This document shows positions 1,760-56,986 of a DNA stretch of 64,000 bases, one piece after another. The number at the start of each line of letters is the position of its first letter. Position 1 is the stretch's first letter. The notes below the pieces were generated by a model that had not been told where the DNA came from, searched no databases, and worked only from the letters and a program-made list of their open reading frames with translations. The stretch lies in assembly GCF_044324875.1 (NCBI RefSeq), contig NZ_CP172185.1, one strand, 5' to 3'. The DNA is from Escherichia coli. GTDB lineage: Bacteria; Pseudomonadota; Gammaproteobacteria; Enterobacterales; Enterobacteriaceae. The translations under genes and the position numbers were made by a program.

Positions 1760-2617
1760 ATGTCAATTAAAACAATTAAGTATTTCTCAACAATCATTGT
1801 AGCGGTAGTTGCGGTTCTTGCCGGATGGTGGCTGTGGAATTATTACATGCAATCTCCGTGGACACGCGACGGGAAAATACGCGCAGAACAGGTTTCTATC
1901 ACCCCTCAGGTGTCGGGACGTATTGTTGAGCTGAATATAAAAGACAACCAACTGGTTAACGCGGGGGATCTTCTGCTCACGATCGATAAAACGCCCTTTC
2001 AGATCGCCGAGCTGAACGCACAGGCTCAGCTGGCGAAAGCGCAATCTGACCTCGCAAAAGCCAATAACGAAGCGAATCGTCGTCGTCATCTCTCACAAAA
2101 TTTTATTTCTGCCGAAGAACTCGATACCGCTAACCTCAATGTTAAAGCGATGCAGGCCAGTGTTGATGCCGCACAGGCGACGCTGAAACAGGCACAATGG
2201 CAACTGGCGCAAACGGAAATTCGCGCCCCGGTGAGTGGATGGGTGACTAACCTCACTACCCGCATCGGCGATTACGCTGACACCGGGAAACCGCTGTTTG
2301 CCCTTGTCGACAGCCACTCGTTTTACGTCATTGGTTATTTTGAAGAAACCAAGTTGCGCCATATCCGCGAAGGTGCACCAGCACAAATTACCCTCTATAG
2401 TGATAACAAAACGTTACAGGGTCACGTTTCCAGTATCGGTCGGGCGATTTATGATCAGAGCGTTGAAAGTGACTCAAGCCTTATTCCGGATGTGAAACCT
2501 AACGTCCCCTGGGTTCGACTTGCCCAACGCGTTCCCGTCCGCTTTGCGCTGGATAAAGTCCCAGGCGATGTCACGCTGGTGTCGGGCACCACCTGTAGCA
2601 TTGCCGTAGGTCAATAA
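1760..2617 (+). CDS. ydhJ: HlyD-family membrane fusion protein
   Basis: ATG at 1760 in the frame of ORF 1718..2617; N-terminal TM segment plus coiled-coil; 285 aa. Confidence 0.85.
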
Positions 2618-14315: not shown

Positions 14316-14351
14316 TAAAAAAAGCACGGTAAGGGGTCTACCGTGCTTTTA
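14316..14351. terminator. bidirectional rho-independent terminator between early operon (mor) and left-end accessory gene
   Basis: A-run, 9-bp stem AGCACGGTA / TACCGTGCT with 7-nt loop, T-run. Confidence 0.55.
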
Positions 14352-19420: not shown

Positions 19421-21190
19421 TCAGTTGCCGTTAACAATGCTGATAACGCTGCTGCGGGCCGGCGTGGTCAGCGTGGCCATGACTTCATCCAGTGCGGCTT
19501 CCGGTACGCCGTCCGGGTACTGTGCTGTTAACTGGCGGTAATGTTCCGGCGTCCAGGTCAGGCCGTCGGCGCTGAACTTATCGCGCAGGGCTTTCGCGGC
19601 CTCCACATGAGTCATGGGACGCTGTTCAGTGCGCGGTCCGCGTACGTCAGAGGCCTGACCACGCTTCGGTATACAGGCCGGAAGTGTGGCGTCATCAATA
19701 TGTTTATACGGGTCAAGCCGCCCGCCGAACGGCAGCGCCTTCGCCTTGCGTGCGGCAGCTGCATCTGCGGCGTTGTCTGTACCGGTGACCAGCGCTTCGG
19801 TTTCTTTTGCCGCCATCTGCGCCGGGGTTTCCGGCAGGGCTTTGTAACTTTCGCCAAATACCGCCGCGCCTTCAGCAAAGCCAAACTCGTTCTTTCTGAC
19901 CTCTTCGACCAGGAAGAACGTCTCGTGGCCGTCCTCACCGGTCAGAACCACCTGTGCCACATCGCTGCGCCACGGGTTACGGGTAATCATCAGTTTTTCA
20001 CCGACCAGTACGCCCGGTACCGTTGATACGTCAAATTCAGTGCCCCGGAACGAGACACGAAGTTTTGGCGTGACTTTGCGGAGTTCTGGTGCCGCCACAG
20101 CCAGTTCACGACATACCTCAACGGAAGGCGCTTTTTTCAGCTGCTCAGCAGTAATCTTCAGCCAGATATCCGTGCGGGTTTTACCGTGGCGGCTGTGAAC
20201 AGCCGTGGCGTTAAAGTGGCTGCGCCATTTCGCGGCCAGCGCGTTGAGTTCTTCCAGACTGTGAACCGGCCGGAACTTCAGACCCGGCTCCAGCTTGCGT
20301 TCGATAATGTCACGCGCCTTTTCCACCTGTCCGGTGGCGCGGGCGTTATGCGGCTTGTGCGCTATCAGGTCGATGCCCAGTGAGCGGCACATGTTTTTCG
20401 TCATACCCGCGGTGTTTGCCGAGCCGGGGTCGAGATAGAGTATTTTTGGCACGCCGTGCAGCACGTCTGCGCCGCCACGCTCCTGCATGGCGTTGATAAG
20501 CACAGAACACAGGTTCTCACCGGATTCCGCACCCGTCACATACTCAACGTAAATCCAGCCGCTGGCATGGTCGGTAATCTCGTAACTCCACACGCGGTCA
20601 CTGGCGATACGGGCAAGGTTAGCGGGCTTGTTTTTGTAGAATTTCGCGCTGTCCATCACCTGCAGCCCTTTATGTCCATTGCTCAGGTAGTAAAGCGTGC
20701 AGAGTGAGGCGTCAATCTGCCAGACATGATTGGGGTGCAGACTGGCCACTTCGGTATGCGGTGCAGGGGCATCCAGTTGTTCCGGGTGCAGGCCATAGTT
20801 ACGCAGGGCACGACTGATGGCATCTTCGGACAACGGGAAAAACTCACCGGTGGTTTCATCTGTTCTGCCTGCGGAGATAAAGCCGTTAGCCCGCAGGGTT
20901 TCCACTGCATCCGCGATGGAATAGAGACGCTTACCGTTCTTGCGGGTGGCCTCACGTAGTGTGGCAGATATCAGCGCGGCTTCGTCGCGGGTCAGGGTGC
21001 TGCGTCCGGCATCGGCGCGTTTTTTGCGTTTATCAGTCACAGAGACCTCCTTCAGCCTGCGCAGCAGAGTGGCGCGGGACATGCCAAGTTCAGCACAGGC
21101 AGCGTCGTATATTGCACCGCGTTTACCATGCCCCGCATTACGTGCCGCGCGGGCTGTTTCAACAAGTTTTTCAGTCAGTGCCGGGGTCAT
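19421..21190 (-). CDS. DDE transposase (Mu A-like function, rve-type catalytic core with N-terminal HTH)
   Basis: 589-aa ORF; HTH RATLLRRLKEV; HVWQIDASLC core; position upstream of MuB-like gene. Confidence 0.8.
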   Translation of the reverse strand: MTPALTEKLVETARAARNAGHGKRGAIYDAACAELGMSRATLLRRLKEVSVTDKRKKRADAGRSTLTRDEAALISATLREATRKNGKRLYSIADAVETLRANGFISAGRTDETTGEFFPLSEDAISRALRNYGLHPEQLDAPAPHTEVASLHPNHVWQIDASLCTLYYLSNGHKGLQVMDSAKFYKNKPANLARIASDRVWSYEITDHASGWIYVEYVTGAESGENLCSVLINAMQERGGADVLHGVPKILYLDPGSANTAGMTKNMCRSLGIDLIAHKPHNARATGQVEKARDIIERKLEPGLKFRPVHSLEELNALAAKWRSHFNATAVHSRHGKTRTDIWLKITAEQLKKAPSVEVCRELAVAAPELRKVTPKLRVSFRGTEFDVSTVPGVLVGEKLMITRNPWRSDVAQVVLTGEDGHETFFLVEEVRKNEFGFAEGAAVFGESYKALPETPAQMAAKETEALVTGTDNAADAAAARKAKALPFGGRLDPYKHIDDATLPACIPKRGQASDVRGPRTEQRPMTHVEAAKALRDKFSADGLTWTPEHYRQLTAQYPDGVPEAALDEVMATLTTPARSSVISIVNGN

Positions 21191-21523: not shown

Positions 21524-22440
21524 TACTGCATGCCCTCCGGTCGGTTGATTTCAGGCTCCGGTTCGGTCAGCCATGCGGGGACATCGTTACCCGATGGTGC
21601 GGCATCAAGGTCGAACGTCTCACGCAATGCATGAACACTGCGTTCAATCTGGCAGACCAGACCGGCCATGAAATCTCTGGGGGTATCAATCATGTTTTTA
21701 CTGCAGTATTCACACAGGGTTTCAAAGGCACCGGAGAGCCGGACGGCGATGGCAGATTCCGCCTCAACCGCTAATGCGGTCACTTCCGCCCGCAGCTTCT
21801 TCACCTCTTCATCAGGCTCAGGCGGTTGAATACGGGATTTCTTCTCCAGTTTTGTGGCCAGTTCGTTGATTTTTTCGTCCTTTCCGGCAAGCACCTGTTG
21901 CTGAGCTGCGTTAGTTTCGCGCGCTTCACGCAGGGCCTGGCGAAGTTCACGTACTGACATGCGATCAACATCATCAAGCGTCAGGCCGGCAACTGTGCCG
22001 CCGTCGGCCAGTTCGGCAAGGTCTTCATCGTCTTCAGCAACAAGTTCAAATAATTTTGCCTTACCCAAAAGCGACAACGTTGTCGCTTTTGGCTCTAGTT
22101 TTGGTGAAAGGTATTTCAAAGATGCTTTCATCATTCGTTGTGCTGCGCGCACGTGCAAACCAAGTTGTTCTTCTACAATTCCAACAAAGTCCCCGTGTGG
22201 CTCATTTTCTTTTAAGATGATCAGCCGTTTACCCGCTTCCAGCATAGATTCAGCACTCTGCGCCATATAAAAACGTGCTTCGTGAACGATGCGATCACGT
22301 TCATAAGGCAGTCCATCACCAAACTGCTGCATGATCTCCATGCGATGCTGTGTCATGGCATTCAGGCTGACGTTGAGATCATCCGACAGCGGTACCTCGG
22401 CGTTCAGTTCAGTGTTAACCGGTGATTTGGTGCGTCCCAT
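21523..22440 (-). CDS. hypothetical early protein (305 aa, acidic coiled-coil region)
   Basis: ORF between ner-like and transposase genes; no confident family assignment. Confidence 0.45.
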   Translation of the reverse strand: MGRTKSPVNTELNAEVPLSDDLNVSLNAMTQHRMEIMQQFGDGLPYERDRIVHEARFYMAQSAESMLEAGKRLIILKENEPHGDFVGIVEEQLGLHVRAAQRMMKASLKYLSPKLEPKATTLSLLGKAKLFELVAEDDEDLAELADGGTVAGLTLDDVDRMSVRELRQALREARETNAAQQQVLAGKDEKINELATKLEKKSRIQPPEPDEEVKKLRAEVTALAVEAESAIAVRLSGAFETLCEYCSKNMIDTPRDFMAGLVCQIERSVHALRETFDLDAAPSGNDVPAWLTEPEPEINRPEGMQ

Positions 22441-23000: not shown

Positions 23001-23100
23001 CGTTGTCTCCTTTGTTGATGCAATGATGTTTGCCTTATGTGTGATAGATTATGGTGCAGATTATCTCACCAGTCAACTTAAAGAGTGCAGAAAAACTCAC
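23001..23100. promoter_or_regulatory. divergent early control region between ner and repressor (candidate operators)
   Basis: 100-bp AT-rich spacer containing the direct repeat AGATTAT twice (GATAGATTATGGTGCAGATTATCTC). Confidence 0.35.
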
Positions 23101-23439
23101 ATGATCGGGTTACGTATTAAAGAAGAAAGAGAGCGTCTATCTCTTACACAGCAAGGGTTGGCTGATGCTATCGGTGTGGCAAAGAGAACTTTTATTGATT
23201 GGGAAAAAGATCGCACTTCTCCTACTGCAGTGCAGTTATCTGCACTATCAGAAATCGGTGTAGATGTTTTGTATGTAGTTACTGGGGTGCGGAGTCAGCC
23301 TGTTGTTGCACCTTATATGTCACAAGAAAAGAAAGAGTTAATGGATGCATTCGACGAGATGAGCCCCGAACAACGGAGGGCAATTCTTGAGGTCGGCAAA
23401 GTCTTCATTCAACCCAAACCAAGCAAACTCGCAGGCTGA
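23101..23439 (+). CDS. XRE-family HTH repressor (c-like)
   Basis: Internal start MIGLRIKEERERLSLTQQGLADAIGVAKRTFIDWEKDRTSP, a classic XRE HTH; divergent from ner. Confidence 0.6.
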   Translation: MIGLRIKEERERLSLTQQGLADAIGVAKRTFIDWEKDRTSPTAVQLSALSEIGVDVLYVVTGVRSQPVVAPYMSQEKKELMDAFDEMSPEQRRAILEVGKVFIQPKPSKLAG

Positions 23440-23525
23440 TTCTGACCTGGACAGAAAGGACAGGTGGTTGATCTGGATGCTTTCAGAAAACGCCGTCAGT
23501 AGCATGGCAGAAATCGGCGGGCTTA

Positions 23526-23548
23526 CCGGAAAGCACTGTACTTTCCGG
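23526..23548. terminator. bidirectional terminator between convergent repressor and dam genes
   Basis: Stem CCGGAAA / TTTCCGG with 9-nt loop followed by T-rich tract. Confidence 0.5.
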
Positions 23549-23557
23549 TTATGGCTT

Positions 23558-24322
23558 TTAGAAATTGCAGATCACCAGCTCACGGCGTGGAGTTGATTTG
23601 CCTGCCAGACTGTAGTTGATGTTCACTGTCTGTATGTTCAGTCCAGTGAACACCTCGCGCATCTGCGGGATGTCGTTCACCGAAATTATCATCTTTCCTC
23701 TGATGCACCGGGCCAGCTCTGCCAGCCGCGAGTAGTTCCCTTCAGGAAAATCCACACCATAGCCTTCTGTACCCAGATACGGCGGGTCACAGTAGAACAG
23801 CGTGTGCGGACGGTCATAGCGCTCAATGCACTGTTGCCAGTCCATGTGTTCTATCACCGTTCTGGAAAGCCGCAGGTGTGCCGCTGACAGTTCTTCCTCG
23901 ATACGCAGCAGGTTGAAGCGTGGCGGGGATGTGGTGGAGGTGCCGAAGCTGTGCTCTGCCACCTTGCCGCCAAACGCCTGCTTCTGGAGGTAGTAGAACC
24001 GTGCTGCACGCTGGATATCCGTCAGTGTTTCTGTCGGGGTGATCTGCAGCCATTTGTAGATCTGCCGGCTGACCAGCGCCCATTTGAACTGGCGGACAAA
24101 TTCTTCCAGATGATGTTTTACCACCCGATACAGATTTACCAGTTCACCATTGATATCGTTAATGACTTCGAGCTTACCAGGTGTCTTAAGAAAATAGAGC
24201 GCTGCTGCGCCGCAGAACGGCTCCACGTAACATTCATGCGCCGGAAACAGCGGCAGGATGTGTTTTGCCAGGCGACGTTTGCCACCAATCCATGGAACGA
24301 TGGGTAATGTCTGCATTTTCAT
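23558..24322 (-). CDS. Dam-type N6-adenine DNA methyltransferase (D12 class)
   Basis: 254-aa ORF with DPPY catalytic motif and N-terminal FCGAAALYF SAM-binding motif. Confidence 0.8.
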   Translation of the reverse strand: MKMQTLPIVPWIGGKRRLAKHILPLFPAHECYVEPFCGAAALYFLKTPGKLEVINDINGELVNLYRVVKHHLEEFVRQFKWALVSRQIYKWLQITPTETLTDIQRAARFYYLQKQAFGGKVAEHSFGTSTTSPPRFNLLRIEEELSAAHLRLSRTVIEHMDWQQCIERYDRPHTLFYCDPPYLGTEGYGVDFPEGNYSRLAELARCIRGKMIISVNDIPQMREVFTGLNIQTVNINYSLAGKSTPRRELVICNF

Positions 24323-24514
24323 AATCTGTAAGCCTTTTACAATTATTAAAAATATGGCAGGCTAGTCTGGTCTCGCGAGACTGACTGAACCCCGGTCGGC
24401 TCACAGCGCATTCCTGTGGGACGATGGCCAGCCCGGTGGGTCCGAAGCACCGGGCTGGTCGTTCTTTCATGATGCGGCAGGGATGAAGTGATTTCTGTTA
24501 ATGTGGTTTAGGGA

Positions 24515-24730
24515 TTATCCGGGGCGATTTTCTGACCTTATCTGGTCCAGGGCATAAGTGATCCCTTCTGCAAAAACAGAAGTATCAAACTGCTTTTGTA
24601 TTTCCTGAAAATGAACAGTGGCACGACAGACACTCAGTTCTCCGCGATGTAACCGGATAATATCTTCCAGAACATTGTTCACTGCTTCGGCACGGCGCTG
24701 ATGTTCTGTTAACGTTAATCGGGGATTCAT
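24515..24730 (-). CDS. hypothetical 71-aa protein upstream of dam
   Basis: ATG with AAGGAG SD 8 nt upstream; no recognisable motif. Confidence 0.5.
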   Translation of the reverse strand: MNPRLTLTEHQRRAEAVNNVLEDIIRLHRGELSVCRATVHFQEIQKQFDTSVFAEGITYALDQIRSENRPG

Positions 24731-25107
24731 GATGCACTCCTTAAATGATGATTTTTATGTACTCACCGGCAAAATATTCTGCCGATTACTGAACACGCAT
24801 CCGGCTCCTCAGGTTTTGATTTATTCTGGTTTTTTCGATATCCCGGACCAGGTTGATCACGACAGAAAAAGTGCCGGTATTTTATTGATACGCTGATATG
24901 GCTTCGGGATAACAGCTATATTCGTTACTCTCAGTTGCTGGCTGTGGGAGCGGCTGATGTCGTCCTCACGGAAAAAACGCTCTGTCTGCTCAATGCCATG
25001 CCGACCTTTCTGCAGCCCCGGCCCGTACCATTTAAAGAGTCACTTCTGGATGCAGTAAAAACCGGTGAAAATGCAGTCATCGCTGAATGCGTATCCCGGA
25101 TTATGCG

Positions 25108-25656
25108 TTACGTGTTTAATGAACGTAAGTGAGGTTTATCCGCTGTCTGCATAATCCCGATAGCCAGTGCGAGGGGAAGCAATTCCGGGGAAACTCTTTC
25201 AAACAGCGATTCCCATTCTCCTCTCGCCATCACTCTGTCCAGCCCGCCCTCCAGCTGCATTTCAGCAATCTTCCTGATTTCCCGGAACAACGCCGCTTTG
25301 ATCTCTTCATGCTCAGCTTTATTTTCCGGTGTCAGAATGTATTCGTCGAAGAACCGGGGAGGCTGGTTAACGGGGGGCATGTTCACCGGGATGTGTTCCT
25401 GTATCCCGTACTCCGGGGCTGAAAAACATTTTGTTGTCTGACCGGTGAGTTTGCGTAACACCTTCATGAGTTGCTCCTGAAGCAGCTCATTCGTCCGACA
25501 GATACGCTCGTCGTCCACAACTGCGGCATCGACAATGACGCTTTTTCCAAATTCCTTTTTCACCATCTCTTTTATACGCGTCAGAACGTAACTTTTACCG
25601 CTGCCTACAGGCCCGGACACTCTGACGGTGATGGTCGGCTTCGGTGTGACTGTCAT
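25108..25656 (-). CDS. small P-loop NTPase (about 182 aa), function unknown
   Basis: Start MTVTPKPT with AAGGAG SD; Walker A GPVGSGKS and hhhhDD Walker B-like VIVDAAVVDDE. Confidence 0.6.
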   Translation of the reverse strand: MTVTPKPTITVRVSGPVGSGKSYVLTRIKEMVKKEFGKSVIVDAAVVDDERICRTNELLQEQLMKVLRKLTGQTTKCFSAPEYGIQEHIPVNMPPVNQPPRFFDEYILTPENKAEHEEIKAALFREIRKIAEMQLEGGLDRVMARGEWESLFERVSPELLPLALAIGIMQTADKPHLRSLNT

Positions 25657-25736: not shown

Positions 25737-25787
25737 TCCGCGCCACGCTTTTGCCATGCTGTCTCCACACAACAAGGAGACATTTTC

Positions 25788-26138
25788 ATGAAACCATTCA
25801 CTTCCCTTATCGTTGACGTACAAAAAACCCGCCTGCGTGGATGGCTTGTTGCGGCCGTGCTGCTGCTCCTCATCATCGCGCTGGTCTCACCCCAGCAGTT
25901 GCCGGTGGTGGTGTACAAGCTCTCTCTCATCTCCCTCGCCGCCGTGCTCGGCTACTGGCTGGACCGCTCACTCTTCCCGAAGGCCCGTCCGGGGCAGTAC
26001 CTGAAGCATGACGAGCGCCTCATGGCTGAGGGGCGCTGGCCCGTACAGACCGGCCTTCACCTGGTGTTTTCTGCTGCGTTAATCCGCCGTGCACTGATTG
26101 TTGCAGCTGTCTGTCTGGCTGTTGCGATGGGGCTTTAA
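25788..26138 (+). CDS. putative holin / lysis membrane protein
   Basis: 116-aa ORF with two or three TM segments immediately upstream of the endolysin. Confidence 0.5.
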   Translation: MKPFTSLIVDVQKTRLRGWLVAAVLLLLIIALVSPQQLPVVVYKLSLISLAAVLGYWLDRSLFPKARPGQYLKHDERLMAEGRWPVQTGLHLVFSAALIRRALIVAAVCLAVAMGL

Positions 26139-26140
26139 TC

Positions 26141-26875
26141 ATGAACTGGCCACAGAGCACCTGGATTGTATGCATGTCCCTGAAACTGGCTTTCGAAGCC
26201 TTTCTGGTCTTCATCAGAACCGAACGCCTGTCAGTCCGTGTCGGGACCTTTCTGGTTCATATGGCATGGGTATTCTTTGTCGCAATGTTGCTCTGGTGTG
26301 GCGGCTTCTTCAGTCAGGCCCGCGCAGCGCAGCCTCCGCAGGCTGCGCTGCAGTATCGCGATGATGTGATCCGTAATGCCCGGCTTGAATGGGGGCTGTC
26401 TGCGCCGGTGGCCGATTTCGCCGCGCAACTGCATCAGGAAAGCGGCTGGCGGACTGATGCGGTCTCGCCGGTGGGCGCTCAGGGGCTGGCGCAGTTTATG
26501 CCCGCCACCGCTGACTGGATAAGCCAGTTGATGCCGGCGTTGAGCAGTCGTGAGCCGTTTAATCCGGCATGGGCCATCCGGGCGCTGGTCAGCTATGACC
26601 GCTGGCTGTGGCAGCGCATCAGCGCCGCCAGTGACTGCGAGCGTATGGCCATGACACTGTCGGGCTATAACGGTGGTCTGGGTTGGGTACAACGGGACAG
26701 GCGGCTCGCATCACAGAAAGGTCTGGACAGCACCCGCTGGTTCGGACATGTCGCCACGGTGAATGCCGGACGCAATGCTGCCAGCTGGCGGGAGAACCGC
26801 CATTATCCGCAGCGCATCCTGCACGAACTGGCCCCCCGTTATCTGACATGGGGGGGCGGCAGCTGTGTGGACTAA
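26141..26875 (+). CDS. lytic transglycosylase endolysin (SLT domain), probable signal-anchor (SAR) type
   Basis: SLT catalytic region HQESGWR...GAQGLAQFMPATA; hydrophobic N-terminal segment. Confidence 0.75.
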   Translation: MNWPQSTWIVCMSLKLAFEAFLVFIRTERLSVRVGTFLVHMAWVFFVAMLLWCGGFFSQARAAQPPQAALQYRDDVIRNARLEWGLSAPVADFAAQLHQESGWRTDAVSPVGAQGLAQFMPATADWISQLMPALSSREPFNPAWAIRALVSYDRWLWQRISAASDCERMAMTLSGYNGGLGWVQRDRRLASQKGLDSTRWFGHVATVNAGRNAASWRENRHYPQRILHELAPRYLTWGGGSCVD

Positions 26876-27167
26876 CCTGCTAAAAAATCTGCCGTGGCGC
26901 AGTCTGCTGCTGGCAGTGCTCATAAATGCTTTTCTGATTGGACTTTATTACCTGGGCTACAAAAGTGCAAAATGGCATCTGAATCGATCGCAGTTTGGCA
27001 TTCGAATCGATCATGATTTGGCATCCATCTCCGATCACAGTTTGGCATCACAATCGATCACGATTTGGCATGCTTCCGATCATTGATTGGCATCCTGCCA
27101 GTCACTCCGGGAATTAACTCTTTTCACCACAGTCTCCATTGCCGTGTTTAAACCAGTGGAGACGTCA

Positions 27168-28733
27168 ATGTCCAGAAAGAGAAAATCCAGGAGCACTATG
27201 GAAACCTGTTTTAAGATCCTTCAGCTCAAGTTCGACAAGAAGCTGACTAACCGTTGTATCGGACTGACGTTACACATCAGCGCCTCAACCGTTTTTGAGG
27301 TTCTTGCCCGCTTCAAAGCCTCTTCTCTGTCATGGCCATTACCTGCTGATATATCCCATGACACGCTGGAGAAACTCATTTTTCCGCCCAAAGACACCTT
27401 TGCATCAGAGCTTGTAATGCCTGACATGTTGTACTTCGATACGGAAATGAGAAAACCAGGTGTGACGCGGCAACTGTTGTGGATGGAATACAAGGCACAG
27501 GCGGGTAACAAAGCGATGGGATACTCGCACTTCTGCCGTTGCTACCGGGAGTGGAAAAAAACGCGACGTCTCTCCATGCGCCAGGAGCATCGTGCCGGCG
27601 AAAAGCTTTTTATCGACTTCTGTGGTCCTACGGTTCCTGTTATTAATCCGGACACCGGTGAGATACGCCGCGTGGCAATCTTCGTGGCCGTAATGGGGGC
27701 GTCCAACTATACCTACGTTGAAGCGTGCGAAGGTCAGGACATGATGTCATGGTTAAATGCCCACAGCCGTTGCCTGACCTTCCTGGGCGGCGTACCGAAG
27801 CTGCTCATCCCCGATAACCTCAGAAGCGCAGTGAAAAAGGCCGATCGATATGAGCCTGTCATCAACGACAGTTATCAGGCACTGGCTGAGCACTATGGCA
27901 CGGTTATCATCCCGGCCCGACCACGCAAACCTAAAGATAAACCAAAAGCAGAAAACGGCGTCCTCATCGTTGAACGATGGCTTCTTGCCCGCATCCGTAA
28001 TGAAACCTTCCACACGCTCAGGGCGCTGAATGCGCGCCTTAGGGAGTTACTGACAGACATGAATAACCGGCCAATGAAGGGGTACGGCAATCAAACCCGT
28101 GCAGAACGCTTCCGCATACTGGATGCGCCAGCACTCTCTCCGCTGCCTCTGGCACCTTATGAATACACGGAATACAAAGCTGTGAAGGTTGGCCCTGACT
28201 ACCACGTTGAATATGCCCGTCACTGGTACTCCGTTCCACACGAACTGGTCGGTCAGCGTCTGTCACTGAAGGCGGGGCAGTCGGTGGTACAGCTCTGGCA
28301 CAAGGGGCAGTGTGTGGCGCAACATCCGCGCAGCACACATGAATATAAACACACAACCAATCCGCTTCACATGCCAGAGCGCCACCGGCAGCACGGGACA
28401 TGGACACCGGAACGCCTGATCGAGCAGGGAAAACGTACGGGCCCGTCCACAGGCCGGGTGGTTGAATCCATGCTGAAGGCAAAACCCCATCCGGAACTGG
28501 CTTATCGTGCAGTTCTGGGGCTGCTGGCACTTCAGAAAAAATACGGCCCGGAACGGCTGGAAAAGGCCTGTTACGTTGCCCTGCACTATAACGCCCCTGA
28601 CAGACGCTTTATCGACAATCTGCTGCGTCACCATCGGGAGAACCTGGAGCTTCCATTATCCCGCCAGGGCGAACAACATCCGGCATATGCTTCAGAGCAT
28701 GAAAACCTGCGTGGTCCGGGCTACTACCACTGA
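27168..28733 (+). CDS. istA: IS21-family transposase IstA
   Basis: N-terminal HTH plus DDE core (FIDFCGP ... IPDNLRS ... VERW); start uncertain (27087 TTG to 27198 ATG). Confidence 0.8.
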   Translation: MSRKRKSRSTMETCFKILQLKFDKKLTNRCIGLTLHISASTVFEVLARFKASSLSWPLPADISHDTLEKLIFPPKDTFASELVMPDMLYFDTEMRKPGVTRQLLWMEYKAQAGNKAMGYSHFCRCYREWKKTRRLSMRQEHRAGEKLFIDFCGPTVPVINPDTGEIRRVAIFVAVMGASNYTYVEACEGQDMMSWLNAHSRCLTFLGGVPKLLIPDNLRSAVKKADRYEPVINDSYQALAEHYGTVIIPARPRKPKDKPKAENGVLIVERWLLARIRNETFHTLRALNARLRELLTDMNNRPMKGYGNQTRAERFRILDAPALSPLPLAPYEYTEYKAVKVGPDYHVEYARHWYSVPHELVGQRLSLKAGQSVVQLWHKGQCVAQHPRSTHEYKHTTNPLHMPERHRQHGTWTPERLIEQGKRTGPSTGRVVESMLKAKPHPELAYRAVLGLLALQKKYGPERLEKACYVALHYNAPDRRFIDNLLRHHRENLELPLSRQGEQHPAYASEHENLRGPGYYH

Positions 28734-54575: not shown

Positions 54576-54592
54576 ATAAAGAACTGACGGAT

Positions 54593-54616
54593 GCCCGTTC
54601 GCATCCGTCAGTACTG
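54593..54616. terminator. hairpin between convergent lhr and grxD
   Basis: Stem GACGGATGC / GCATCCGTC. Confidence 0.4.
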
Positions 54617-56135: not shown

Positions 56136-56262
56136 AACTTTACCCTGTTGTTACGGCAACAGGGTAAGTTCATCTTTTGTCTCACCTTTTAATTTGCTAC
56201 CCTATCCATACGCACAATAAGGCTATTGTACGTATGCAAATTAATAATAAAGGAGAGTAGCA

Positions 56263-56927: not shown

Positions 56928-56955
56928 GATAAATCGCACGTTGCCAGCAACTGTA

Positions 56956-56986
56956 ACGCAGAAGGTTATCCTTCTGCGTTTTTGTT
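56956..56986. terminator. rho-independent terminator between convergent sodB and ydhP
   Basis: Stem ACGCAGAAGG / CCTTCTGCGT, loop TTAT, then TTTTTGTTT. Confidence 0.6.

Follow-up and report, generated by a model that had tools for sequence, protein, structure and literature searches.

A dam-linked RNA element on the strand opposite the dam leader of a BcepMu-type Escherichia coli prophage: a candidate antisense gate on a phage DNA methyltransferase

Orphan Dam methyltransferases of phages bear on the evasion of restriction, on packaging, on mismatch repair and on host gene regulation, and the control of their dosage is mostly unknown outside Mu mom and P1. This question arises for the transposable prophage of the BcepMu type carried by a 64,000-nt stretch of the Escherichia coli chromosome (NZ_CP172185.1, hereafter the window), whose dam gene is preceded by a spacer of 192 bp (24323-24514). 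What does this spacer encode? A first-pass annotation had noted in it a palindrome and a GC-rich hairpin, taken as separate elements of the dam leader and suggestive of regulated expression through an operator or an RNA structure, loosely analogous to com/mom control in Mu. Our analysis places them instead as the first and last hairpins of a single unit, which is very probably a structured RNA element of the + strand, opposite dam. The structure of this unit is strand-specific, the unit is linked to dam in many phages, and it resembles a characterised family of plasmid countertranscripts. On balance we favour a model in which the spacer encodes a cis-antisense RNA, or countertranscript, that would be expressed from its own promoter and would repress dam.

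The palindrome GTCTCGCGAGAC lies at 24370-24381 as first described, with flanks AGTC (24364-24367) and GACT (24383-24386) set off by TG and T, respectively. A 12-nt palindrome is not beyond chance on its own (14 in the window vs 18.4 +/- 4.4 in dinucleotide shuffles), and no second copy was found in the 64-kb window at up to two mismatches. The GC-rich stem is formed by GGCCAGCCCGGTG (24426-24438) and CACCGGGCTGGTC (24448-24460), and its perfect Watson-Crick part spans 11 bp (24428-24438/24448-24458) rather than the 12 bp originally given. An 11-bp perfect stem is beyond chance, shuffles yielding 0.2 per window vs 13 overlapping matches, or roughly 8-9 separate hairpins; the other perfect hairpins of at least 11 bp in the window are located at 22065-22092, 14320-14350, 848-875, 26324-26351, 54583-54612, 56140-56167 and 56955-56980. 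The stem had also been described as lacking a U-tract, which is true of the dam (-) strand and not of the + strand, where CUUUCA follows a stem of 16 pairs. The significance of the palindrome and hairpin rests on conservation and covariation, in the frame of the following unit.

24336-24341, + strand: -35-like hexamer TTTACA, read from the sequence, 16 nt upstream of the -10-like hexamer
24358-24363, + strand: -10-like hexamer CAGGCT; TAGGCT, TAGAAT, TAGACT, TAAACT, TAAAGT, TACGCT or GATAAT in homologs
24370-24469, + strand: predicted antisense RNA of about 100 nt, complementary to -48 to -147 of the dam leader
24370-24381, + strand: P1, palindromic hairpin GTCTCGCGAGAC, which the AGTC/GACT flanks can lengthen
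24381-24399, + strand: SLB, CUGACUG-AACCC-CGGUCGG, from the RNAalifold consensus, holding the conserved CCYYGG motif
24400-24420, + strand: SL2, CUCACAG-loop-CUGUGGG, with a conserved stem and a loop of variable sequence and length
24423-24438 with 24448-24463, + strand: SL3, a 16-pair terminator hairpin with tail CUUUCA at 24464-24469; it contains the GC-rich stem described above

In related E. coli prophages the cargo differs and the block at about 24345-24469 is nearly invariant, even next to dam coding sequence that has diverged; homology ends at 24469, immediately behind the SL3 tail, and two E. coli strains keep the block with just ~80 nt of dam. Among enterobacterial relatives, the element is 83-91% identical vs 77-85% for dam DNA. 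A close set of 37 distinct sequences was assembled from E. coli genomes, viral contigs and the phages PhiKM, KP12 and Phi06_2974 B, the viral contigs being found by two exact-pattern scans anchored at opposite ends of the block. Variation in this set falls in the hairpin loops and at stem positions where pairing is preserved. The region is considered non-coding because the differences in loop length are not multiples of three; a small open reading frame (ORF) in the spacer was discarded, its ATG at 24470 being limited to the group of the window and loop indels breaking the reading frames.

With a model built from these 37 sequences (R1), full-length matches were obtained in Dam-anchored viral contigs that encode Dam proteins of only 64-82% identity; the matches lie on the strand opposite dam and 25-150 nt upstream of it. 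The divergent copies have little sequence in common and share the same order of parts: TAnnnT, palindrome, CCYYGG, SL2 (7-9 bp), SL3 and a pyrimidine/U-rich tail. Thirty diverse members were then aligned (alignment A4) and used to build a second model, R2, which detected the element opposite dam in 70/80 Dam-anchored viral loci (68 just upstream of the gene, within about 330 nt), many of these contigs being related, so that the counts do not represent independent events. R2 also finds the element in Pseudomonas phage B3, Burkholderia phages phi1026b and KS9 and Vibrio phage VP882, with scores far above those of the reverse orientation; in PhiKM and KP12 it likewise lies upstream of dam on the opposite strand. 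In unrelated phage types the ~145 nt that separate dam from the last late gene (Rz, gpD or a tail gene) are occupied by the element, and the element and dam therefore appear to travel together as a cassette.

The covariation and folding analysis across homologous loci and the comparison of related prophages, both proposed by the first-pass annotation, were carried out and bear out the importance of the two hairpins: the palindromic hairpin and the GC hairpin are kept with varying sequences, SL2 and SL3 covary, and the + strand folds with a z-score of -4.03. In A4, 20/23 pairs of SL2 and SL3 change on both sides, namely six of the seven pairs of SL2 (e.g. CACAG/CUGUG, CACUG/CAGUG and UGCAG/CUGCG) and 14 of the 16 pairs of SL3. 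The cells of these two stems are paired in 94.6% of cases vs 76.3% in shuffles (0/500 as high) and 35-48% in slid controls, figures that are favoured by the fitting of A4 to the structure of R1. Within SL3, the apex GUG..CAC and the base GGUCGC are conserved and the middle covaries. SLB shows G.U to G-C changes at two pairs and is the least certain helix among distant homologs. The conserved apex and base of SL3, together with the CCYYGG motif, suggest a protein or RNA partner.

At the place of P1, the homologs carry 17 distinct Watson-Crick palindromes without a spacer, each 10-16 nt long and beginning 7-10 nt downstream of the hexamer (Fisher-combined shuffle p 3e-17). This strict zero-spacer test was used in place of one allowing G.U pairs and loops, which was weak per sequence (p 0.01-0.2). 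In all of these palindromes the self-complementarity runs right through the centre, more than an RNA tetraloop would need. Use of the P1 hairpin on both strands would account for the absence of G.U pairs in its stem, only Watson-Crick pairs being tolerated because the palindrome would then serve both strands, but would not account for the central symmetry. Such symmetry might arise by mutation, through template-switch correction of quasi-palindromes. A different 5' helix proposed by RNAalifold ('SLA', GGCAGGC into the palindrome; pairs 30-33/119-122) was rejected, distant homologs keeping the local palindromic hairpin instead.

The strand carrying the structure was read from the substitutions themselves. 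Substitutions in the stems are almost exclusively of the C to U or G to A kind, which give G.U pairs on the + strand and C.A mismatches on the dam strand; the P1 palindrome pairs equally on both. The pairing frequencies and folding energies of the two strands are as follows.

SL3, close homologs: 98.5% paired on the + strand, 80.7% on the - strand
SLB, close homologs: 100% on the + strand, 59.5% on the - strand
SL2, close homologs: 100% on the + strand, 85.7% on the - strand
SL2 and SL3, 30 diverse homologs: 95.0% on the + strand, 82.7% on the - strand, with 97 G.U cells
Fold of 24370-24469: -51.6 kcal/mol (z -4.03) on the + strand, -38.7 kcal/mol (z -1.13) on the - strand

R2 scored the window at 100.3 bits on the + strand vs 26.2 bits on the - strand, and favoured the same strand in locus L124, a Burkholderia-type member (82.2 vs 29.4 bits). 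The pyrimidine/U-rich tail is present on the + strand only. The earlier suggestion that dam expression is regulated through RNA structure is thus partly upheld: a conserved structured element is indeed linked to dam, and its structure lies on the strand opposite the dam leader.

The two ends of the unit have the appearance of a promoter and of a terminator. Position 2 of the -10-like hexamer is A and position 6 is T in 25/25 distinct homologs, a list picked by eye and hence subject to some ascertainment, while positions 3-5 vary; as read from the sequence, this pattern is the signature of a -10 box. TTTnCA is found 16-18 nt upstream of the hexamer in many homologs (by eye, with no formal score), and the dam Shine-Dalgarno region, which reads GCCTTTT on the complementary strand (24332-24338), overlaps the -35-like hexamer. 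A helix between the hexamer and CCYYGG ('P0') was also examined by eye and rejected: one case is compensated (TAAAGT with CUUU) and the TAGACT, TACGCT, TAAACT and TAGAAT classes are not. The hexamer is read as a -10 box because P0 is mostly uncompensated. At the other end, the SL3 stem reaches its 16 pairs on the + strand via G.U pairs, has UU in its last pairs and has the form of a Rho-independent terminator on that strand, the - strand having no U-tract after the stem; a promoter/terminator scan also flags SL3 on the + strand, and the tails of homologs range from C/U-mixed to runs of U7-8. The 5' end of the RNA should be near 24370, the first base of the palindrome, judging from the spacing to the -10-like hexamer, and the 3' end near 24466-24469, judging from the terminator tail and the abrupt end of homology at 24469.

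How does this element relate to known RNAs? The window element matched no Rfam 15 family, whether 5 kb were searched at E<=1 or 221 nt at E<=10, and the 221-nt search likewise gave no match to RF00236 (ctRNA_pGA1), a family of plasmid countertranscript RNAs (ctRNAs). L124, by contrast, aligned with RF00236 end to end (model 1-79) at 44.4 bits (E 1.6e-5; gathering score 45) and L084 scored 29.5 bits; none of 20 further loci scored at the gathering level, so that no tested member of the phage family belongs to RF00236 by its gathering threshold. In the reciprocal comparison, the Corynebacterium plasmids pTP10 and pAG1, which were found with the RF00236 consensus and used as pGA1 relatives, carry ctRNAs scoring 82 and 76 bits against RF00236. 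R2 recognises that of pTP10 at 35.2 bits (E 2.8e-9) and that of pAG1 at 17.2 bits, at the same coordinates and on the same strand as RF00236. Both lie at 1201-1277, opposite the leader of a rep gene ending at 1146 or 987, and the plasmid hexamers TATACT/TAGACT align under the phage hexamer, the one in pAG1 ending 10 nt before position 1 of the Rfam model.

RNAs of the pGA1 type control the amount of Rep and plasmid copy number (PMC9592669). Like them, the predicted phage RNA lies opposite the leader of the gene to be controlled, begins about 50 nt before the start codon of that gene and is directed away from it; in both, a stem-loop is directly followed by a terminator hairpin with a UUGCCG-type loop, and a -10 hexamer lies just upstream. 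The two-hairpin body whose second hairpin is an intrinsic terminator is found in the phage element as SL2 and SL3. The phage RNA differs by its additional 5' palindromic hairpin P1, absent from the plasmid RNAs, and by the CCYYGG motif; by its partner gene, a phage Dam in a chromosomal Bcepmuvirus-like prophage rather than a plasmid Rep; and by its hosts, Proteobacteria rather than Actinobacteria. The two appear related in design, through either common descent or convergence.

Cis-antisense control RNAs are widespread in mobile elements, with pMV158 RNAII, pT181 RNAI, R1 CopA, IS10 RNA-OUT, lambda OOP, P22 sar and P1/P7 c4 as examples. These are constitutive, short and structured, have their own promoter and terminator, and target dosage-sensitive mRNAs of the same element, to whose 5' part they are complementary. 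They control replication, transposition or immunity genes, whereas the phage element adjoins a DNA methyltransferase gene; several of them overlap the ribosome-binding site, which the phage dam RNA does not, and no sequence or model relationship to them was seen, the window element having no Rfam match. Antisense RNAs reportedly also act in restriction-modification systems, likewise as RNA-level control of a DNA methyltransferase of a mobile element, the methyltransferase being here an orphan Dam instead. The Mu com-mom system resembles the dam cassette in placing a DNA-modification gene at the end of or within the late region of a transposable phage under special post-transcriptional control, and B3-type phages have a Com homolog directly upstream of dam; the window differs in that it lacks a Com protein, a sense-strand hairpin of the Com-target type and GATC or OxyR-type sites, its structure being antisense. 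The Burkholderia thailandensis small RNAs (sRNAs) BTH_s1 and BTH_s39, considered as possibly the same RNA, were set aside, the paper giving no support for this, and the element sequence was not found in full-text literature searches. The observations are best explained by a new, widespread family of dam-linked antisense sRNA genes, not captured by Rfam and akin in design to the plasmid ctRNAs.

In the model that we favour, a sigma-70-type promoter (TTTACA, 16 nt, CAGGCT) adjoining the dam ribosome-binding site and pointing away from dam would drive transcription from ~24370 through P1, SLB and SL2, stopping at SL3 (~24466-24469). The resulting RNA of ~100 nt would be perfectly complementary to -48 to -147 of any transcript entering dam from upstream, that is, transcripts crossing the upstream 71-aa gene in the window and late-operon read-through in other phages. 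By pairing with the dam leader, this RNA would reduce the amount of Dam made, whether the leader is refolded, cleaved by RNase III or translated less. In addition, the promoter would face incoming polymerases, and transcriptional interference could block weak read-through into dam; with typical footprints, a polymerase at the antisense promoter would cover roughly 24315-24390, including the ribosome-binding site and start codon of dam. Strong late transcription would override both effects, and Dam would be made mainly late in lytic growth. The logic would be portable because such a self-contained gate needs no phage-specific regulator, which fits the occurrence of the cassette in Mu-like, lambda-like and P2-like phages.

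Two more specific mechanisms were considered and dropped. Anti-Shine-Dalgarno pairing between AGCCU and AGGCU of the dam Shine-Dalgarno, freed by antisense binding, is present in enterobacterial and some other groups and absent in the Burkholderia and L080 groups, hence not general. The original work on the pGA1 ctRNA reportedly proposed attenuation in the rep leader. In the phages, intrinsic-terminator attenuation in the sense leader was not retained as a general mechanism: the U5 run comes no sooner than 5-11 nt after the sense hairpin and is missing in several groups, and L072 alone has a clean additional terminator. In this last locus, at ~2466-2490 (- strand), an extra small hairpin TGCCAGCATGGCA lies between the -35 and -10 regions; on the dam-sense strand UUGUUUUU follows it, which gives the form of a clean intrinsic terminator a short way upstream of dam.

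Several points weigh against the favoured model, beyond the dependence of A4 on R1 and the relatedness of the contigs noted above. The window hexamer begins with C and the -35 hexamer is imperfect. A generic promoter scan picked TTTTCA-16-TACAAT (24316-24343) instead, with a start at ~24350, which makes the 5' end uncertain; the CAGGCT promoter is preferred because TACAAT is replaced by TGCAAT, without the critical A, in a large subgroup, and a start near 24350 instead of 24370 is possible. The AGTC/GACT outer stem covaries in relatives (GGCCC/GGGCC, CACCTT/AAGGTG, TGCC/GGCA) and yet lies upstream of the predicted start, which implies either a start a few nucleotides further upstream or a place for this stem in the sense leader. 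The terminator tail of the window is short and interrupted (CUUUCA), and that of many homologs is C-rich. The minimum-energy fold of the single sequence pairs the palindrome with part of SL2, leaving P1 unformed. Finally, direct ribosome occlusion is unlikely because the RNA overlaps neither the Shine-Dalgarno nor the start codon of dam, and the sense leader showed no attenuator terminator that is conserved across the family.

These points give room to other explanations, which we weighed against the same evidence. SL3 might merely be a one-way terminator or insulator that stops + strand transcription, such as antisense read-through across dam from the repressor side, before the late lysis genes, the remainder being dam promoter and leader. 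SL3 does behave as a + strand terminator, + strand cargo genes after the repressor head towards it in relatives with the holin ~100 nt further, and the block is kept where dam is deleted. A generic terminator, however, needs no conserved SL2, P1, CCYYGG or SL3 apex and base; in phi1026b, KS9, VP882 and B3 there is nothing downstream to protect, the element facing the end of a convergent late operon; and the -10-like hexamer, invariant and always at about the same distance from P1, speaks for a local start of transcription. We regard this explanation as unlikely. The reading closest to the first-pass annotation, a structure acting in cis within the leader of the dam mRNA (- strand), a palindromic operator or both, with Com/mom-like control, is improbable. 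In its favour are the perfect Watson-Crick palindrome, which folds equally on both strands, and the outer stem, which is not part of the predicted antisense transcript, could have a role in the sense leader and pairs better on the sense strand in two variants (AATC/GACT); Com homologs also exist in relatives. It is contradicted by the strand bias, SL2, SLB and SL3 losing 13-40 percentage points of pairing on the dam strand, whose fold is no better than shuffles (z -1.13) and whose R2 score is 26 vs 100 bits. As for the operator, the palindrome is single-copy in the window, its sequence is wholly different between related phages (17 unrelated palindromes) and its centre gains or loses 2 nt even between close relatives (GCCTACCGGTAGGT vs GCCTACGTAGGC); a com/mom-like mechanism finds neither a com ORF nor a GATC in the spacer 24323-24514.

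Retention of the block with a dam stub alone in two E. coli strains, together with the conserved single-stranded CCYYGG motif and SL3 apex, could also point to a trans-acting phage sRNA whose main targets are host mRNAs or other mRNAs of the phage, its adjacency to dam being an incidental cassette linkage; prophage sRNAs with trans targets are known. We give this little credence, in view of the tight, directional linkage to dam in 70/80 loci from unrelated phage types and hosts and of the lack of conservation outside the structure between host groups, which argues against a common trans target. Still less probable is an element acting at the DNA level, with the zero-spacer palindromes serving as a cruciform, protein-binding or recombination site at a mosaic boundary. 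This would suit the self-complementarity of all 17 palindromes through their centre, beyond the needs of an RNA tetraloop, and the ending of homology blocks at the element, but leaves the G.U covariation of SL2 and SL3, the U-rich tail and the -10-like hexamer unexplained; palindromes of 10-16 bp are in general short for cruciform extrusion, and no recombinase is linked to the element.

Beyond the antisense model for the window, a broader reading can be offered only tentatively. The element and dam may form a portable, self-regulating 'RNA-gated methyltransferase' cassette, built on a widespread, hitherto unannotated family of phage countertranscripts, moving between Mu-like, lambda-like and P2/telomere-type temperate phages of Proteobacteria and evolutionarily related to the actinobacterial plasmid ctRNAs. 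In it P1 would serve twice, giving the antisense RNA its 5' hairpin and, on the other strand, forming a hairpin in the sense leader. A self-contained antisense gate, if true, would explain how the dam cassette can reside in phages with unrelated late-gene regulators without harming the lysogen. It would also add a sizeable RNA family to phage annotation, reaching phages of Klebsiella, Pseudomonas, Burkholderia and Vibrio, and the link to plasmid ctRNAs suggests that one RNA design has been reused or exchanged between plasmids and phages across phyla.

The survey of the phage loci allows local gene models to be corrected and brought further observations on the surroundings of the element. The Dam of PhiKM (L033, 4249-5103) is annotated 90 nt longer at its 5' end, into the element, and ORF46 of B3 (26 aa; L135, 2224-2304) is annotated on top of it; both the extension and the ORF are probably over-calls. 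In many Mu-like contigs (L074-L081, L084 and others), dam extends almost to the contig end, stopping a few bases short of it, which is the position of mom in Mu, and the RNA element is then placed between dam and the last tail gene. In L101, L111, L113, L090, L082, L107 and L135, a small gene with many Cys codons intervenes between the element and dam; that of B3 is annotated as a Com translational regulator and overlaps the start of dam. Some dam cassettes thus appear to combine the predicted antisense RNA with Com-type control as an add-on.

The dam locus is present in 564/5426 complete E. coli genomes (about one in ten), and phage PhiKM, classified as a Bcepmuvirus, is 89.5% identical to the window across the dam region. 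The early operon of the prophage is on the - strand and runs leftward (Ner-like, helix-turn-helix (HTH), DUF3102, DDE transposase at 19421-21190, ... Mor); the repressor-like HTH gene (23100-23439) and the late genes (holin at 25788, SLT, ...) run rightward, with a variable cargo region between them that includes the following features.

23525-23549, between the convergent repressor-like gene and dam: terminator-like hairpin ACCGGAAAG..CTTTCCGGT then TATGGCTTTT
23558-24322, - strand: dam, 254 aa, start ATG at 24322, RefSeq name 'DNA adenine methylase', PHROG 56 DNA methyltransferase
24336-24333, - strand: dam Shine-Dalgarno AAGG, read from the sequence
24515-24730, - strand: 71-aa gene, PHROG 4490, unknown function, annotated as hypothetical protein, directly upstream of the dam leader
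24729-25132, + strand: frameshifted copy of a 134-aa gene, PHROG 2266, 99% identical to WP_000972292.1 apart from a 1-nt deletion
25108-25656, - strand: P-loop NTPase gene of the cargo region

The dam product scores 116.8 bits against the TIGR00571 Dam subfamily (cut-off 114.85), which identifies it from its sequence as a true Dam-family enzyme; it is an orphan methyltransferase, no restriction partner being seen nearby. The hairpin at 23525-23549 is probably the 3' end signal of both the repressor-like gene and dam. The 378 bp at 24731-25107, previously considered devoid of a convincing ORF, are in fact occupied by the + strand 134-aa gene, which a 1-nt deletion near 24862/63 splits into two ORFs of 55 and 65 aa in the window and which is intact in strain 2016C-3878 and most relatives. 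Because this + strand gene sits between them, the NTPase gene, the 71-aa gene and dam do not form one simple operon. The 71-aa and 134-aa genes start back to back with overlapping start codons (CATGATG, 24728-24731), and the promoter of each must therefore sit within the other, an unusual divergent arrangement of unknown function.

Further into the late region, an inverted repeat TGTCTCC-N9-GGAGACA (25760-25782, + strand) lies just upstream of the holin ATG (25788) and encloses the Shine-Dalgarno GGAG; it is kept in the relative L004 despite different flanks, and from its position may act as a translational lock on the holin. Its arms have GTCTC/GAGAC in common with the dam-leader palindrome, possibly by coincidence. 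An IS21-family transposase gene (NF033546, 284 bits; 27087-28733, + strand) follows the SLT gene, which in the relative L001 is directly followed by a lysis/spanin-like gene; the late region of the window copy of the prophage thus seems to be interrupted by an insertion sequence.

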